Positions 51,237 to 61,416 of a DNA stretch of 64,000 bases are shown here, piece by piece (positions within the stretch are counted from its first letter, which is position 1; every line of letters begins with the position of its first letter). Source of the stretch: Podospora anserina (lineage: Eukaryota); NCBI GenBank assembly GCA_017654855.1, contig CM030338.1, positions 2,356,001-2,420,000 on the forward strand. The letters are read 5' to 3'. A program made the position numbers and the translations under genes. Below the pieces are notes generated by a model, which saw only the letters and a program-made list of their open reading frames with translations, was not told where the DNA came from and made no database searches.

Positions 51237-54200
51237 CTACTTATTCCCCGTCCCACCCCTCAACCACTCCCTCACCACCCCTCGTTTCTTGACCACCTTG
51301 TTTATTACTCCTCCTCCTCCACCACCTTTGATGTCGCCCGTGGCAGTGGCGGGAGTGAGGCCCTCTTGAACAGCATCAATCTCCTCGTATTCTTCCTCGG
51401 TGACTCCAGAGGTATACTCATAGTCAAACCCCATCATCTTCCCCTTCAGATCCCCGACAGGAGTCCCGCTGGTTGGAGAAGGAGTCTGACTCCCCAACCC
51501 CATCCCCGCCTCCCTCATCCTCTCCAACCCCCTCGCCAACGGCCCCACAAACACCGCCTCCCCTTCCTCCTCGATCCCCTTCCTCTTCTGCCACTCCACA
51601 TCCTTGAACCCCTGTTGTCCTCCTCCCGACTCAAACGGCGGAGGCGGACTCACACTCGGCGCGATGGGGGAGTACCCCCCCTCCTCCCCCGGTAGCACAG
51701 CAGCAGAATCCTTCCTCATCATCCCCATCATCAACCCCTTCCTCCACAGCGCCGGAAACCGCCCCTCAAACTCCCTCTCCAACTCCCCCTGCCTCTCCTC
51801 CACCTCCCTGAGTCGTTCCACCTTCCTCCCAGGCACCAGCTCATTCCCCTTACTCCCCTTCCCCTTCCCCTTCCCCCCCCACCCCTCCAACCAGGCCTCA
51901 AACAACCCATCCCTCTCCCTGCCCTCCTCCTCAGTCAAACTCCCCCCTTTCTGCCTCAACCCATCCAGATACTCCTTCGCTTCTTGCGTCATCTTTTCTC
52001 CCGAGATGTACCTATCGAAACTGGCCGAAAACTCCCTGTAATGACCCTTGAGCACAAAACACCTTCCCTTCCACCCCTTTTCCCCGAATTTTTTGCCCAG
52101 CGCCGAGGCAGTCGGGCATTCCCATGGAAATTCTATCACGCGGTCGTAAAAGACCACGCAGCGGCAGGTCGACCACTTGGAGAACGACCGTCGTGATTGG
52201 TCGTCCACAAAGGTGTCTTCTACCATTTCCAGGCTTGCCCAACTGATAAACTTGAGTGGGGCTCGTAAATTGATGGAGTTGTGGATGTGGGACCGTTCGA
52301 AATCGGTGCTGGAGCGCAGGTCAACCAACAAGATCCCCTTGGAGGGGTAAATCTCCAAGAGGCGGTTCAGATGGCCCGGGAGTATCATGTCTGGCTCGTC
52401 ACCCGGGTCGACTGGTTCGCTGGAGGGGAGGCGCAAGGTCTGGAGGTTGGTGTCCAGCCGGTGCTGTTCCCTGCGGTTGTGGAACCAGATCCTGATGTCG
52501 TTCGTTTCCACCCCCAAATGGGAGGCCAAATGCTCAAGGACTGCTAGGTTTGGTTCGGGGTCGCGGTGGAAGTATTCTTCTAGGCGGTGGAGGACGTGTT
52601 TGGCTAGTTGGTGGCCTGGGGGGATTTCTTCGTCCGGCGAAAAAGTGGAGCGTTTGGAGGATTTGGAGCGGTTGAGGATCATTGTTCTGGTTATGTCGGG
52701 GGTGTGATGGGAGGGGGAGGTGAGGGAGGCTGGGCGGGGTTGTTGTTGTTGTTGTTGTTGTTGTTGGCCTGAGAGGGATATGGCTGAGCCCATGTTTCTT
52801 AGGGAGGTGAATAAGCTGCTGGAGGAGGGCTGAGGGGTGAGGACTTGGGAGTAGGGGGTTAAGGGCATGGAATCGGCTCGGTGGGTTGATGTCCAGGGGT
52901 CTGCGGGGATGTTTGGTACGCTGGCCCCGTGGCGGACGGTTTCCATGTTTTCGGTCTGGGCGAGGGTAGATCCGGAATAGGATTCGGCATCGTCCTGGGC
53001 GAGCTCTGGTTGGACTTCACGGCTGAGCTCTGGTTGTACTTCCTGCGTCACGGTGGCAGGGACGCTTGCTTCAGCTGGTGTTGGCTCGGGACTACTCTCT
53101 TTTGGTTCTCGCAACAGGTTGTTTGACCGAATGAATGCCACAAATGAACATGCTGGATCGTCAGGAAGAAAATCCCACACCATCACCGGTAGTGATAGCA
53201 ACAAAAGTGTCGAATGGCTCTTGAAGACGCCTTGCACCTTGACAAACTTCGCCAGCGCAGGAAAGCTTGCCAGCCACTCCTCCCACTTATTCAAATCCAG
53301 CTTCTGGTCATCCTCCAGAGCCAGGGAAATCATCACGTGAGGCTCGTCCTCATTCGGCTCCGAGGCCGTCGGAATCATGTCATCCATCGAGGATGGGAAT
53401 GGCTGGTGCCAGTCCCGACCCGTTGGGACTGAGCTCGATGCCATGCCACGACGGGACTTGGCAGGTTTTGGTGGCACCAGTCGGCATATCTCGATGCTGG
53501 GTGCTTTGTGGTTCGACGTCATCATGAAGTGAACTGGTGTTGATCTCGCCTCGAAGTGTTTGCCGTTGATCAAGATGGGACGTGGATGCTTCAAACGAGC
53601 AAGGACCTCGGCGTGCAGCATCGCGGCCGAGAATGTCTTTCCTCTCCACTCTTCAAGAACCTCGATCAAGGTGTTGGTGAAAGAATATCTTCCCGGATCA
53701 GGGGCGATGGCGTCCCAACTCGAAGCGGAGATGGTCTCGGTGATGCTTTGGCCTGTCGGGAATGTGGCACTGGCTGCTCCGGCACAACAGTCGAGAAGAA
53801 TCAACACATCTGATATTGATCTTTCGAGGAGAGTTTGGATGGCAGACCATTGTAGCCACGGTGAATCATGACGGCGATTACTACAAGAGTTAGTCGAGAG
53901 GGTTGAGGGTCTGATGGCAGAGTCGTAACATACGCGCACCAGGTGCTCTGCCGTGACTCGTCTATCCTGGCATGACCTCCATAGTAGACCACGAATAGTG
54001 TCTGTTCGGATTCGTATTGTTTGACCATGTCGCCAATCCTGAGCATCAACTCCAGGTGAGAGTTCTCAGACGGAATCGAAAAGATGTCGGTCTCGAAGCA
54101 GTAGTGATCCCGGAAGCACTTCTCCAAGTCCTCCAACTCTGGCAAAACAAACAAATCATCGCTCTTCCAGTGAAGCATCAGGGCGTGGACCTTGGTGTAT

Positions 54201-55119: not shown

Positions 55120-56661
55120 ATGAGGGAAAGAATTACGTTTGTGCAAAAGGAGGGTGACTCGATAGAGCCCACAGCCTTGAAAGTCGACGGCAACGGACTG
55201 AAGGGCCCAGAAGTGAAGGCCGTCCGCGAAGACAGGCTGACATTCGCCCTGGATGAGTTGCCTGCGGAACTCAAAGCCTTGTTAGAGGGTGTCAACCAAC
55301 TACACGTCCGATGGGTCAGTCCCGTCGCATATGAGGCTGTTAGTCCATTACTAGCACGTCTTCCTCCTGGCTTCCACCTGTTCTACACTCCTGGCAGTGA
55401 TGCATTGTAAGCTTACCAGTCTTGTATACCCATCCATATACTGTACTAACATGCCCTCAGAATCAACCCCTGCCCCCTCCTCACCAAAGCATTCGGCCTC
55501 GACTCCTGCTCCTCCCCCTCGGACTCCTTCACCACCCTCCCAACCGACCGCTTCACCCACTCCACAACCCACCAATTCTACCAACCCCTCCCCTCCCTCA
55601 AAGCCTTCGCCCACTTCGCCAGATCCCTCCTCTGCCCCCCAGGCTCCCCTTCATCCTGCTCCTCCCGCGTCGGTTCCCTCACCGCAGCCAGCCAACTCGA
55701 CCTCTCCTATGATACAATCTCTCACACCCTCCGCCTAACCTCCCTCTGGCCTTACTCCCCCCAATCCCTATCAGCATCCCTCCTCTCCCCCACCATCCGC
55801 ACCGAAATCGGCATCCTCTCCCAAACCTCCCCCAAAACCCTCGAACCCCACGAAATCGGCATCTCAGGCCTCTTGACCGTCCTAGGGCAATCAACCACCC
55901 CCTCCCCAACATTATTCTCCTTCCCCTCCCGGCACAGGGACTCCTCCTCCTCCTTCCAAGCCCACTTCCTCCCCCCGACAGGCCTCCACCCAACCCTCCA
56001 GCTATCAATCTCCTCCCCTTCACCCCCGGCAAAATCCCCTACTGAAGAAACCTGCCGTTTACACGGGTACTTCACCCTTCCCAAAACCCTCTTCCCTGAT
56101 CGTCACCAGCTCAACGATCCCCTTTTTCTGTCGTCTAAAAACCTGACTGCGGTTCGGTATATCACCCCTGGAATCGACCTCGAAGCACCAGTGTATGTAA
56201 CCTCCACATGGGGCTCTACCCTCCTTCTCGAGCTTGCTCCCCCCCATTCTTCTTCTTCTGGAAAAGAATGGACAGCCGAAATCCCGCTTCATCTACGGTA
56301 TTTGCCTCCCAGTTTAACCGGGTATCAAAAGGCGGAGGTGCCCTACCCGGCATTGTTCTGGGCTTGCACAGCGGAGGAGGGGACGAAATTCCCGGGCAAC
56401 CCCTTTGAGAAGGACAGGGTGGGCTATGATGGGTTGTTTGGGGAGAGGACGGTGTTTTGGCATTTGAATCCCTCGCCCGCGGACGGGAAACTGGTAAACA
56501 CTGTCAAGGTCCCGGTGCTGAACCTGGAAAAGGCAGACTGGGTCGGGACTGTGACCGGGGCCGTGGTGGTGGCTGGGTTTGCGTGGGTGGTGATCAAGTT
56601 GCTTGGGGTCGTGGTGATGGGTGGGAAGAAGGTTGGTGAGGACAAGAAGAAAAAGCAGTGA
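55120..56661 (+). CDS. PBN1: Pbn1/PIG-X, GPI mannosyltransferase I subunit; intron 55407-55460
   Basis: MRERITF, REDRLTF, RLPPGFHLFYTP, PTGLHPTLQL, LPKTLFPDRHQL, DLEAP and IPLHLRYLPP, then a C-terminal TM and a KKKKQ ER-retention-like tail. Confidence 0.88.
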
Positions 56662-56825: not shown

Positions 56826-57233
56826 GAGAGAACCTTTACGGAGCCCCCCATTTATCTTGCAAGTTCCCCACCCACCTGATATAGAATTAACTATATTTTA
56901 AAGGATGATTATTAAGTGTTAAGAAATAATTAATAGGCTTTAAAAATAGTTAAAAGACGGAAAGGATAGTTCAAAGGCCTTAAAAGATACTTAACAGGAC
57001 TTAAAAGATAGTTCAAGGGTCTTGAAGGATAGTTCAAGGGCTTTAAAAGATAGTGTAAAGGCCTTTAAAGATAGTTTACAAGCCTTTAAAGATAGTTTAC
57101 AAGCCTTTAAAGATAATTTAAAGGCCTTTAAACTATCTGAAAGTCCTTTTACTATATTATAAAAAAAGTAAGTAAATAGGTAGGGAGAGGGGCACTGGTA
57201 AGAGAAAATAAGGGGCTCCGTAAAGGTTCTCTC
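56826..57233. mobile_element. Non-autonomous DNA transposon (MITE-like, 408 bp), AT-rich and RIP-like
   Basis: Perfect 22-bp TIR GAGAGAACCTTTACGGAGCCCC (56826-56847) / GGGGCTCCGTAAAGGTTCTCTC (57212-57233), extending imperfectly to ~50 bp. It is flanked by the identical 8-mer TTATTTTA (56818-56825 and 57234-57241). The interior is much more AT-rich than the flanks. Confidence 0.88.
56930..57135. repeat. Degenerate ~21-bp tandem array (AAGGCCTTTAAAGATAGTTTA-like) inside the transposon
   Basis: About 9 diverged copies, e.g. aagcctttaaagatagtttac repeated near 57060-57120. Confidence 0.8.
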
Positions 57234-57536
57234 TTATTTTATCCCAACAGCGTTAGATACCTCCCACAAGAGCAACACACGCAGGCATATATCACAACCA
57301 ACCAGCAAGTTTGAATCACACCAAACACCAAAAAATAATCGTCTCTTGTTTTGGAAAATTGTATACTTCATCTTCCCACCCAAAACGCCGAAAACGTGTA
57401 TTTTACGGCCCCTCTCCCCCTCCCTTTCCTCCACCCAACCAAAACCACTTAAACATACATTGAGCCTGCTACTACTCTGACTAGGTATCCGCTGAAACCT
57501 GTCTGCGTACATAGAATACGAGAAAAAAGAAACATT

Positions 57537-59012
57537 TTAAACACCAAATCCCTGTGAACTCGCTGCTCCCGCCCCCCCTGAACGGCCCTTCGGACCGGTT
57601 ATAGCCCGATGAGTTATCGGCTGCGTCTCCTATTTGCAGTGCTCAGATAAGTCGCGCAGTTTACACTGATCACACGCGATCTGTTCAAAGTACGACCCCC
57701 CTGTACATACAAGATGAGCATCCTGGCATGGATGACAGATCTGATGGCCGGTGGTGGTTTTCCGTTGCTGTGCAGCCGGCTTGTAATCCCTTCGAGGCCT
57801 GTTCAAGACAGGATCATATTTGCACTGATCATGCGTCTGGTGATCTTTACATTGCTTGCATGGGGATTTCCGATCACATGGGATTCCTCCTCCTCTGTCC
57901 GCACATGGGAAACAATACGCGGTAGACTTTGCTTCTTTTTTTTCGTGCGCCACTTCTCTTATATGTTCCCGGAGAAACTTTTCACTTTTGAATCCAGTTT
58001 CGTTCCGGCAATTGGGGAGCGGACAATAATGGCGACCCCCACCCGCTGCGGGAGGCTGATTCCCATCGTGAGGCTGCGAGTTCGGGAGAGGCTGACCTTC
58101 TTCGTGCGCCACATCTTTCATATGTTGCCGGAGATTTTTTTCACTTTTGAATCCAGTTTCGTTCCGGCAATGGGGGAGTGGACAATACTAGCGACCCCCA
58201 CGCCTTGCGGGAGGCTGGTTCCCATCGTGAGGCTGCGAGTCTGGGAAAGGCTGACCTTCGCCGGCAGAGAACCCACTGTTCGAAAAACCATAGTGCGGCA
58301 AATTGTCTTGAGTAAAGAGTTGCGAATCTTCTTCAGGAGGCTGATTGGTTTGAGGAGGCATGACTTCTTCTCGGTATTCATCCTCCCAAAGAGACTGCGA
58401 ATTTTGGGAAGGTTGCCCTTCGTTGGTATCGAACCCACCATCCAAAAATCCAGAGGGTAGCACACCATCATCATCATCATCATCAAGAAAAGACAGATTC
58501 TCCTCAGGAGGCTGATCAACTTGAGAGGGCATGATCTCTTCTCGGCGTTCTTCCCCCCGAAGAGGCTGCGGGTGTTGGGAAGGCTGACCTTCGTCGCCAT
58601 GATTTCCACTAGTCGCCCAACGATAGTACTCGAAATTGGCTTCATTTTGCAAAAACGGATCCTGATCGGGAGGCGCGTCGGCATATGGCCGCCAGATTAT
58701 GTTATCATCTGGCCCACTGGTCAAGAAACGACAGGGCGACTCAGATATAGGCGCATCTTCTCTAGGGGGCCGATCCTTCTTGGCAGACTGCTAGTCTTTG
58801 AAAAGCTCATTTTCGTCCTCAGACACCATACTCTGAAAATCAACGGACGTTTCCAGCCACGGCGCCCCAGGAACCTGAGCGGAGTACACCAAAACGGAAC
58901 GATTTCGTACGGGCTTGGCTTCTCGGAATAACATCCGAAAGATCCACGGATCCAATCCCCGACCGGTTGACAATCGTCCAGGAAATAAATCCCTTCCAGG
59001 CTGACCTTGGCT
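57537..59012 (-). CDS. In-frame C-terminal continuation of SNF5 (2x C2H2 + 2x Zn2Cys6-like), interrupted by TAG at 58793-58791, 58190-58188 and 57632-57630; candidate A-to-I-edited extension, alternatively a pseudogene
   Basis: ORF-track pieces 58791..58973, 58188..58724 and 57630..58121 all share the frame of the SNF5 last exon (59013..59369). The gaps between them contain no stop, and the first non-TAG stop is TAA at 57539-57537. Confidence 0.65.
57942..58259. repeat. 159-bp tandem duplication, each copy encoding a C2H2 finger on the - strand
   Basis: 57942-58100 and 58101-58259 both begin ttcgtgcgccac and end ggctgaccttc. They translate as HYCPLPNC..FKSEKFLREHIREVAH and *YCPLPHC..FKSEKNLRQHMKDVAH. 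Confidence 0.92.
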
Positions 59013-61416
59013 CTAGGAAGTCCGCGTATGATTCGGATTCAAGGCGGGTATGACGATCCCCGTCCCTCCAGCTGGCGCCCCACTACCGGCCCCAACACTC
59101 GGACTCCTCCCATCTCCCACCACTGGCAGCCCGCCGCCTCCGGCCAGCCTCGCCCTGACCCTCTCCTGATGCGTGTTGTTCTTCCTCAGATGCACCTCAA
59201 AGCCCTTGACCGTGTGCTCCGGACCAACGGTATAACTCTTGCCCGGACAGTCTGCACACTTGATCCTAGGCAAGAATACGTATTTTGTCGTGGGCAAGGC
59301 CATCTGTTCCGGGGTGAGAGGCAAAGGCATCGAGTTCCCTGTTTCGGAGTTGATGGCAAAGTACCGCATTGTAGAGTCAAAGATGTCGTTGGGGTAATCG
59401 CGGCGAAGCTCATCGAGACAGGCTGTGAGCCACGCTGGTGGTGGTGGCTAAGGGCAGGGTATGAGTACCTAGCCAACACGGGCTCGAAGTGGGACAAGGG
59501 GTCAAACTTACGGCTGCAATCTTGGGTTGTGTGCCATCCGGGTTCGGTGGTGGAGCCGGAATGCCATCTTGCTGGTTCTGAACATTAGGGACCACGGCGC
59601 CGCCTGCTGCTGATGGCGTTGACGGTGGGCCCATCGAACCCGCCACGCCCGGAGCTCGTAGGTGAGCAGGCGTTGGTGTAGCTGAGCCTAGCGCTGCCAG
59701 CGGCCTCGGCTTGTACTCCCGCATAAACTTCCTAAGTCGAGCCGGGTTGACACGCAGAGTGATCATGTATTGTTGTGGCACATCTTCTGTCTGCTCCCTG
59801 GTGGCCTCCCGGCCATACCGCCGAGACGTTCGGGTCTCGTGGTGGTGGATGACAGCCTCAGGGGTCTCGGATCGGCCAATATTGGCCATGCGCTGGGCAG
59901 CTGCCGTGGCGGCGCCGCGCATACCCCTGGTTCTGGCGGTCCCTTGAAGCTGAGACACGGCCGGTGAATCAGGATCAGACTCGTCACTGTCTTCCGAGTC
60001 TGAAAGGTCGACACCATCTCTGAGTGTTCTCTTGCCTCCCCTGCCAGCCCCAACACCAGTGGCGCGCTTGAACAGCCGGCTTTCCTCAATGTTTAGAGCT
60101 GCACCGGGCAGCACCGAGGATACGATCGAAGTTCGGATGGTCCTTTGCCTTTCCTTAAGATCCGGCAACTGAGGCCCACCACGTCTGTTGGTAGAACGCT
60201 TCTGTCGCCTCTGCTCACGTGAGAACATGTTTTCGGTTCGTTCCAGTTCGGCCTCGGTATTCTCGTACAAGTACGGTGCGTAGTCCTTGGCTTGTTGTTG
60301 AGGTCGGAACACAGATGGAAGGGGTGTAGGCAAGAAGGCAGCAAGGAGGTCTGGATCCTCGATTGGCCGGCCGTCGAATGGATGGCCCACACTGTACAGA
60401 CTGCGCGTGAAGAGCTGGACCTGTTCCCTGATGCAGTGAGCAATGGCGGTTGTGAACTCGCCCGACAGAGAGAGGTCCCGGGCCATGCAAGCAGCAAATT
60501 CCTCGGGCGAGTTCAGGGGGTTGTTGAGCTCCCATTCAAATTGGTCCACAAGCGTGTGTGCCCCAATGGTGATGTTGAGTTTGATCAGGATGCGCATCTC
60601 GTCATTCTTGTATGCCGAATAGGGGAGCTCGGGGTCGAGGGCTTCCTCTTCCGAGTGGACGAAGGGGAAAAAATCCTGGAGCTGTTCCGTCATCTGGGCA
60701 ACCACTTGGTCATAGACAGGTTTGGCCAGAGGCGGTTCGAGGCCCATGTCTTCGACCAGTTCGGCGGCAAAGTGTTCGACTGACACGAGGCGCTCATAGA
60801 GGTTGAAGGTAAAGGTATCCCGGAGCTTGATTCTGTCGTAGTCCACATCTATCCGGACGGGAACCAGTTCTTCAGGCTGCTCTGCCTGCTTCTTGATCTG
60901 GGACTTTGTGAACTTGACAGGTGGCGTGGCCCTGCGACCGGGGCGACGCCTCTGGGAGGGATATATGAGCTTGGTAGTCCCGCCATTCTCCGTGTAGCCG
61001 TTGCCATAACCGCGGTAGCCTTCACCATATAACCTAGCCGGATACTGGTGATAGAACTCCTTGTAGGTCTTGAAGTCACTGGTGCGCGCAAGCACATCCT
61101 TGGTAGTCTTTTCGAGCCGTATTTGATCTTCGCCGAGAAGAGAAGAATGAACCCAGTCGCGTGTCTGGAAGCGGTCCACCATGACTCTTGTGAAGCTGTC
61201 CTTGTCGCGTATGGGGAGCGCCGCATCCCCATCCTCGGGCTCGGGGCTTGTGGCAGAGGATTTAGTTGGGCCATCGGCAGGTGTGGATGCAGAAGGCTGG
61301 TGGGAAGATGATGGGCCGTCGACCTGGACGTCGGTGTCAGGGGGGAGGTCGGCGGCAGTGGTCGACGTGGACGACGTGCCCAGTGCTGGTGGTGCTGACC
61401 CTTGGAGAGCAGCCAT
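59013..61416 (-). CDS. SNF5: SWI/SNF chromatin-remodelling core subunit Snf5; exons 61416-59512, 59447-59013 (start approximate)
   Basis: Two SNF5 repeats (EELVPVRIDVD..KLRDTFTFN..FAAELVED; EMRILIKLNITIG..LVDQFEWE..PEEFA..GEFTTAIAHCIREQ). The last exon reads PPPPAWL..PRIKCADCPGKSY..FEVHL and ends at TAG 59015-59013. Confidence 0.92.

Follow-up and report, generated by a model that had tools for sequence, protein, structure and literature searches.

Adenosine-to-inosine (A-to-I) editing of fungal mRNA favours U at position -1, A or G at +1 and +3, and hairpin loops, and its stop-loss form hits hundreds of genes in Fusarium graminearum and Neurospora crassa (PMC11156358). In F. graminearum, 71 genes carry in-frame UAGs that are corrected in perithecia (premature stop correction, PSC), six of them at two sites; the TAGs of these genes derive mostly, not always, from TGG, and most of the ancestral genes were already functional before PSC editing was fixed (PMC10776026). 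The known tails added by stop-loss editing, 11-27 aa long, serve as degrons, and strong sites are edited at levels of 70-78% (PMC13123824). Sordaria macrospora also edits, with 47 stop-loss sites in protoperithecia (PMC5381528), and the ADAT genes of Podospora anserina are up-regulated during fruiting (bioRxiv 10.1101/2024.12.09.627484), although the literature search turned up no catalogue of editing sites for this species. The 3' untranslated regions (3'UTRs) of P. anserina have a median length of 212-239 nt and reach 5620 nt at most, and 3203 new transcriptionally active regions (nTARs) are recorded in this fungus, 1471 of them partly overlapping genes (PMC9801653). Here we describe a stretch of 64,000 nt from P. 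anserina (GenBank assembly GCA_017654855.1, contig CM030338.1, positions 2,356,001 to 2,420,000 of the forward strand; hereafter the window, numbered from its first letter), in which the SNF5 gene on the minus strand is followed, in the same phase, by a long Cys/His-rich open reading frame (ORF) interrupted by TAG codons. P. anserina is a fungus of the Sordariales, the order that also includes S. macrospora, and forms perithecia.

A preliminary description of this DNA proposed that editing of four UAG codons fuses SNF5 to zinc-finger domains. We prefer a different reading, to which we give an even chance: the frame behind SNF5 is a separate, lineage-restricted ORF that lies on the long 3' region of SNF5 or on an overlapping transcript, contains two TAGs and is probably decaying, and its match to the SNF5 phase is coincidence. 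The locus would then comprise two units. The first would be SNF5, ending at its normal TAG, and the second an ORF of ~399-434 codons (ATG 58829 or 58934 to TAG 57632) that shares the strand of SNF5 and, by chance, its phase. TAGs 58793 and 58190 would prevent a full-length product as the DNA stands, and the second unit may be a young gene in decay or one that was never fully established.

The open frame itself is as had been described. Past the SNF5 stop codon (TAG 59015-59013), reading continues without a frameshift for 492 codons (59012-57537) to TAA 57539-57537, and the only in-frame stops on the way are the TAGs at 58793-58791, 58190-58188 and 57632-57630. Over these 492 codons, 4 stops fall in the SNF5 frame, 29 and 30 in two other frames, and 7, 7 and 11 in the remaining three. 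With its few stops and strong three-base periodicity, the long open frame exceeds chance. Its main part is an orphan Cys/His-rich ORF (57630..58829, minus strand) of 399 codons, with ATG 58829-58827, a probable stop of its own at TAG 57632-57630 and two internal in-frame TAGs; counted from an upstream ATG at 58934 it has 434 codons, and depending on the ATG its start lies 78-183 nt beyond the SNF5 stop. An acidic, repeat-built N-terminal part is followed by two C2H2-like units and then by two six-cysteine clusters. The first internal TAG (58791..58793, minus strand) is the 13th codon after ATG 58829, and the second (58188..58190, minus strand) directly precedes the first C2H2-like unit.

What separates this ORF from SNF5 is the position of the coding signal. 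Periodicity, tested as base composition by codon position (chi2), is present in SNF5 exon 1 (p=1.6e-14) and exon 2 (p=0.008), and again in the ORF parts 58826-58191 (p=9e-16) and 58187-57633 (p=2e-5). The 186-nt linker between the two genes (59012-58827; chi2=2.8, p=0.83) and the tail behind the last TAG (57629-57345; chi2=7.0, p=0.32) are without it. The linker result does not reflect a lack of power, as none of 994 in-frame 186-nt coding windows is equally flat (0/574 from SNF5 exon 1, 0/83 from exon 2 and 0/337 from the downstream ORF, with minimum chi2 values of 4.0, 7.1 and 3.7). A sliding frame-0 likelihood score gives the same boundaries: it is negative over 59042-58893, becomes positive from ~58920-58830 and remains mostly positive to ~57600, and is negative from window 57662-57573 onward, i.e. 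after ~57632. The onset of the signal coincides with two in-frame ATGs, at 58934-58932 and 58829-58827.

The linker (58830..59012, minus strand), which is open in the SNF5 frame and holds the alternative ATG 58934-58932, probably belongs to the SNF5 3'UTR, to the leader of the ORF that follows, or to both. Its openness is not exceptional: two of its three frames contain no stop and the third a single TGA, and 22% of 20,000 simulated first-order sequences of the same make-up lack an in-frame TAA or TGA. Multiplied by a 1-in-3 phase match, this gives a chance of ~0.07 of appearing 'fused in frame', so that the link to SNF5 is not more than chance. Since the linker is flat and the signal is bounded by the ATGs on one side and TAG 57632 on the other, the apparent fusion is best read as two units in phase, with the first and last TAGs (59015-59013 and 57632-57630) best read as ordinary stop codons. 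The 31 open codons between the last TAG and the TAA (tail, 57537..57629, minus strand), which also lack a coding signature, are read as open by chance and taken as 3'UTR. The fusion of SNF5 with a zinc-finger extension, the central proposal of the preliminary description, is thus not supported.

RNA evidence comes from contigs of four runs from four studies, out of 21 runs that contain the locus; none of the 21 is on record as RNA, and the four were judged to be RNA by their spliced contigs. In all four, the contig from which the SNF5 intron has been removed continues unbranched through the SNF5 stop and TAG 58793 to 58142; the next contigs cover 57983-58167 and then ~57345/57447-58008, overlapping by 26 nt. 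The distance between the two contig breaks, 159 nt, is that of one unit of a tandem duplication (57942-58259), and we therefore read them as assembly breaks caused by the repeat and not as transcript ends. SNF5 RNA does not, then, always end shortly after 59013, since the spliced contigs run to 58142 and those overlapping them to ~57345. The outermost contig ends (57345, 57348, 57422 and 57447 in the four runs) define a zone at 57345..57447 (minus strand) that is likely the 3' end of the transcribed unit, although this is a weak hint. The region downstream of SNF5 is transcribed and unspliced, and its RNA is continuous with spliced SNF5 in the assembled contigs. A contig that spans two genes does not prove a single transcript, and the cover may represent a long SNF5 3' region of ~1.67 kb or an overlapping transcript. 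Downstream/SNF5 contig depth ratios are 0.66, 1.07, 1.99 and 1.83; they were left out of account, as the parts of one gene cannot be ranked by depth in contigs.

The same contigs bear on the TAGs. No joint other than that of the SNF5 intron is reported in the contigs of any of the four runs, so no intron takes out any of the TAGs. In all four runs the contigs match the window at all four TAGs with no other letters, the two internal ones included, and the TAGs are therefore not assembly errors. By the same token A>G changes are seen at none of them in the four contig sets, a negative limited by the fact that contigs drop minor variants and that the stage of the samples is not on record.

SNF5 itself (59013-61416, minus strand) is an ordinary gene of the P. 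anserina species complex, with one 64-nt intron and a normal TAG at its end. Exon 1 (59512..61416, 635 codons), whose end is fixed by the RNA joint, holds the SNF5/SMARCB1 domain (PF04855, E=3.6e-71, 239.9 bits against a cut-off of 21.8, 225/225 profile positions). The intron (59448..59511, GT..AG; CT..AC at its ends on the plus strand) is skipped exactly in the RNA contigs of the four runs (joint 59447|59512), and exon 2 (59013..59447) adds 144 codons and the stop TAG 59015-59013, giving a protein of 779 aa. This length is common to the named proteins of five Podospora species in one 90% cluster, which also includes the older 766-aa model of P. anserina S mat+, PODANS_7_8430. The models of the five sister species thus stand at 779 aa against 766 aa for PODANS_7_8430, and because all four RNA runs carry the 64-nt intron that yields 779 aa, the 766-aa model seems to use a wrong, longer intron.

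A query with exon 2 matched four longer proteins, every one with a SNF5 domain: a 779-aa SWI/SNF subunit of Podospora pseudoanserina (99%), the 781-aa SNF5 of Triangularia setosa (91%) and two more distant proteins of 833 and 836 aa. The position of the C-terminal end is the same in the four SNF5 sequences compared (three from Podospora and one from T. setosa). A literature search that did not cover supplementary tables found no paper on Pa_7_8430, Pa_7_8420, Pa_7_8440 or PODANS_7_8430.

The region behind SNF5 has no such relatives. A search for homologs of similar length with the extension confirmed 0 of 6763 candidates, and a full HMMER scan of 1.84 billion representative proteins of any length returned no relative beyond one ORF call from the same locus, a 47-aa product of 58934-58794 in two variants differing by one residue. 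With this as the only match, no fused form of SNF5 can exist in that library. In metagenome scans 0 of 18 pattern matches were confirmed for the extension and 0 of 593 for SNF5 exon 2. Within the 64-kb window, tblastn finds no paralog of the ORF (best other E=0.63), and Rfam has no match in it; four sub-threshold Rfam hits all lie in an AT-rich array at 57049-57146. By these searches the orphan ORF, which is unannotated, has no relatives and is read as lineage-restricted.

Two further stop-poor frames lie over it, a 248-aa antisense frame (57714-58460, plus strand) and a 188-aa ORF in another frame (58118-58684, minus strand), and both look like shadows of coding periodicity. A search with the 248-aa antisense ORF, as a proxy for variants in other strains, gave 0 of 518 candidates. 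Exact look-up of ten local ORFs found two in the protein collection, neither in the zinc-finger part. A 186-aa ORF (59028-59588, plus strand) opposite SNF5 exon 2 and a 92-aa ORF (57234-57512, minus strand) in the 3' region have entries as proteins predicted from assembled runs. Neither looks like a gene; both resemble what automatic ORF calling yields as a by-product when run on eukaryotic contigs.

Internal repeats indicate how the ORF has evolved. The tandem duplication (57942..58259, minus strand) consists of two copies of 159 nt (53 codons, in frame) that are 88% alike, and each copy holds one C-x4-C-x14-H-x5-H unit. Between the copies of this young pair there are 4 synonymous and 12 non-synonymous differences, and the ratio of non-synonymous to synonymous rates (dN/dS) is 0.84. 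The codon in the second copy that matches TAG 58190 is CAT, so Trp is not ancestral at this TAG. Codon usage is also poor: GC at third positions is 0.46-0.47 in the orphan ORF against 0.63-0.66 in SNF5. When codon usage is scored with six long ORFs of the window as the training set, the N-terminal part comes out weakly positive and the finger part negative. Taken together, the orphan frame is or was protein-coding; it is young and poorly adapted, with signs of recently relaxed constraint. Repeat-induced point mutation was considered as a source of the TAGs and dropped, because the differences between the repeat copies, tallied by hand, mix transitions and transversions and are not the near-pure transitions expected.

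The Cys/His spacings on which the zinc-finger assignment had been based are present when read by hand. On the minus strand, and defined by spacing only, there are two C2H2-like units of the form C-x4-C-x14-H-x5-H (58104-58187 and 57945-58028), a first six-cysteine cluster C-x2-C-x8-C-x5-C-x2-C-x8-C (57822-57914) and a second, C-x2-C-x6-C-x10-C-x2-C-x8-C (57636-57737). The C2H2 consensus is C-x2-4-C-x12-H-x3-5-H, and both units are two residues longer in the middle (x14 vs x12). The Zn2Cys6 consensus is C-x2-C-x6-C-x5-12-C-x2-C-x6-8-C; cluster 2 fits this spacing (x2, x6, x10, x2, x8), and cluster 1 has x8 for x6. The zinc-finger names describe spacing, and family profiles do not back them. Zn2Cys6 (PF00172, Zn_clus) gives no Pfam match at E<=10, with either the whole C-terminal ORF or each cluster alone, and the C2H2 matches are all below threshold: on the isolated first unit zf-C2H2_4 (E=0.11, 13.8 bits, cut-off 27) and zf-C2H2 (just E=0.2, 12.6 bits, cut-off 25.2), and on the whole frame a ZNF462-type family (E=0.012). 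The orphan ORF thus belongs to no Pfam family.

Further comparisons used the 163-aa ORF that lies uninterrupted in the 3' part of the frame. Its language-model neighbours are C2H2-type clusters, of which the best, at 0.78, stays under the lead threshold of 0.9 and serves as a lead only. Its language-model 'recognition' of 2511 is a value reached by 91/100 proteins of known families and by 9/100 shuffled ones. An AlphaFold2 model from the single sequence has a mean predicted local distance difference test (pLDDT) score of 36.6, too poor to judge the fold, and a sequence search of the PDB with the ORF gave 0 matches at E<=10.

Several observations weigh against a separate and decaying ORF. The 78-183 nt between the SNF5 stop and the candidate starts leave little room for a promoter, and the RNA contigs bridge SNF5 and the ORF, which is compatible with a single transcript. 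An older 31-codon repeat pair has a dN/dS of 0.35 (8 synonymous and 13 non-synonymous differences; Fisher p=0.066), a hint of past selection on the protein. The 399 codons contain no frameshift and no TAA or TGA, and periodicity is still strong, as would fit a maintained gene or a very recent casualty. Both internal stops, moreover, look editable, each being a TAG with a purine at +3 and its A in a predicted loop. That the ORF decays instead of being rescued, and that its phase match with SNF5 is due to chance, is what we infer; what the data show are the gene models, the unbroken RNA cover, the absence of introns, the location of the coding signal and the absence of relatives.

The last of these points leads to the alternative that survives best, which we regard as doubtful: a Podospora-specific gene of the PSC type, separate from SNF5, in which ADAT-dependent A-to-I editing in fruiting bodies would convert UAGs 58793 and 58190 to UGG (Trp), so that full-length protein would be made only in sexual development. 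The ORF resembles PSC genes in that two in-frame TAGs alone interrupt an otherwise intact and strongly periodic frame of 399 codons, transcribed and unspliced, with no other stop and no frameshift. The context of the TAGs equals the fungal preferences stated in PMC11156358, as all four have U at -1 and A or G at +1 and +3; the U and the G are, however, given by TAG itself, and the chance of a purine at +3 in all four, estimated from base composition, is ~0.08. Both internal TAGs have A at +3. In predicted structures, a 5-bp hairpin carries a 3-nt loop that begins with A 58792, in the minimum free energy (MFE) as well as in the centroid fold, and A 58189 is in a loop in both; A 59014 is paired in either fold and A 57631 in the MFE fold, which places the two terminal TAGs in MFE stems. 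Precedents for such a gene are the 71 PSC genes of Fusarium with their six two-site cases (PMC10776026) and the editing found in S. macrospora (PMC5381528), and the rise of ADAT in fruiting P. anserina (bioRxiv 10.1101/2024.12.09.627484) is in line with it.

Other evidence speaks against such a gene. Shuffled sequences fold just as stably as the hairpins (z -0.75 to +0.52 for the folds around the four TAGs). Two random nonsense mutations in the ORF would both be TAG with a probability of 0.15-0.22, and the combination 'both TAG, both in loops' arises by chance about 1 in 50 times, on a rough estimate of loop frequency and for features picked after looking. The dN/dS of 0.84 in the young copies and the poor codon usage do not suggest a maintained protein. 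PSC genes are expected to be older genes with a sense codon in their orthologs, most PSC ancestors having been functional according to PMC10776026, whereas the searches, made at the protein level, found no homolog of any length. The paralogous CAT argues in the same direction, although origins other than TGG do occur (PMC10776026). The missing A>G in the four contig sets counts weakly, for the reasons of variant loss and sample stage given above. Two other ways past the TAGs were tried and rejected: the only GT..AG pair that could remove the first internal TAG as an intron spans ~36 nt and has no joint, and no convincing match to a known programmed read-through context was recognised at the TAGs.

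It is unlikely that SNF5 undergoes plain stop-loss editing, in which its UAG would be recoded in fruiting bodies so that SNF5 would gain at most 73 residues as a tail, up to UAG 58793, with the zinc-finger part not reached. The stop is a UAG with purines at +1 and +3 and the transcript continues beyond it, and such editing is common elsewhere, with hundreds of genes in F. graminearum and N. crassa (PMC11156358), 47 sites in S. macrospora protoperithecia (PMC5381528) and degron tails of 11-27 aa in Fusarium (PMC13123824). Here, however, the A of the stop is paired in both predicted folds, the contigs carry no A>G, and the tail would lack a coding signature, though degron tails need none; the idea is a base-rate guess without specific support. 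A literature search that did not cover supplementary site lists found no paper that mentions SNF5 together with A-to-I or stop-loss editing in perithecia, apart from one review on Agaricomycetes in which stop-loss does not figure.

Slightly less likely still is that only the intact 163-codon 3' ORF (ATG 58121-58119 to TAG 57632), with one C2H2-like unit and both cysteine clusters, is translated from an internal transcription start and that everything upstream is a relic. The ORF is uninterrupted from ATG to stop and periodic, and its language-model recognition is that of most proteins of known families. The coding signal nevertheless begins long before its ATG and spans both TAGs; no separate start is apparent in the contigs, the ORF is not called in the protein collection, and neither the AlphaFold2 model nor the Pfam and PDB searches lend it support.

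The proposal of one mRNA edited at all four UAGs in fruiting bodies, giving a ~1270-aa SNF5 fused to zinc-binding domains that would retarget the remodeller, is very improbable: the frames are in phase with no TAA or TGA over 59012-57540, the spliced SNF5 contigs pass two of the TAGs and all four have a purine at +3, but the joining stretch and the last 31 codons look non-coding, so that the fourth TAG acts like a genuine stop, MFE stems contain both the first and the fourth TAG, near-complete edits are needed on one molecule where levels of 70-78% (PMC13123824) would leave about a quarter to a third fully edited, the SNF5 proteins compared all stop at the same place, and nothing resembling the extension occurs among the 1.84 billion representatives. 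The variant in which editing of 59014, 58792 and 58189 (optionally 57631) would yield a stage-specific SNF5 with Podospora-specific Cys/His DNA-binding units, and so target the remodeller by RNA editing alone, is just as improbable.

Beyond the transcribed unit, an AT-rich tandem array (56926-57132; units of 21, 42 and 63 nt, ~10 copies of the 21-mer, 75-77% matches) separates the SNF5/ORF unit from a PIG-X gene, the two converging with their 3' ends. The interval 56867-57033 is without contig cover in all four runs and was not used as evidence. The PIG-X/PBN1 domain (E=4.8e-67) lies in a 403-codon frame (55450-56658, plus strand) convergent with the SNF5 unit, and GC skew is extreme in the first half of this frame, to -0.70 at 55350-56100. 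Further along, a homeodomain (E=5.9e-12) and a rhodanese-like domain (E=2.6e-6) occur together in a 942-codon frame (51240-54065, minus strand), an unusual pairing.

If the second unit is a decaying or nascent gene, the gain is one of annotation, namely an unannotated transcribed ORF behind Pa_7_8430, together with support for the 779-aa SNF5. Correction of its UAGs in fruiting bodies would make it a gene that depends on editing and has no relatives in any other sequenced organism, and would bear on whether restorative and stop-loss editing are adaptive, which is reportedly in dispute in the current literature. The full fusion, if true, would be a new way of retargeting a chromatin remodeller. 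A decayed-looking frame rescued by editing is said to have a counterpart in PUK1 of F. graminearum, an example of a PSC pseudogene.

Among known systems, fungal C2H2/Zn2Cys6 transcription factors share with the orphan ORF the Cys/His spacing, the F..L..H..H layout of the C2H2-like units and, for cluster 2, the consensus. They differ in that the units here score below the Pfam thresholds, with x14 in the fingers and x8 in cluster 1, and in that no basic or dimerisation region is recognised here. The PSC genes of F. graminearum are likewise intact ORFs broken only by in-frame TAG, with two sites in 6/71 (PMC10776026), in a Sordariomycete host and with U at -1 and purines at +1 and +3. The ORF described here, in contrast, is at most a candidate for editing, has no orthologs and shows CAT, not TGG, at the paralogous codon, and it lies 78-183 nt behind another gene whose RNA contigs it shares. 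Stop-loss in FgDBF2, FgMOB1 and FgCDC14 (PMC13123824) resembles the SNF5 stop in its UAG in preferred context and its continuing transcript; the extensions of those proteins are disordered degrons of 11-27 aa, whereas a fusion here needs 491 aa and three further edits, and the first 60-odd codons look non-coding. The long 3'UTRs and nTARs of P. anserina (PMC9801653) are, like the region behind SNF5, transcribed DNA outside annotated coding sequence and beside an annotated gene, but the ~1.67 kb found here is far above the median of 212-239 nt and contains a long frame with a clear coding signature.

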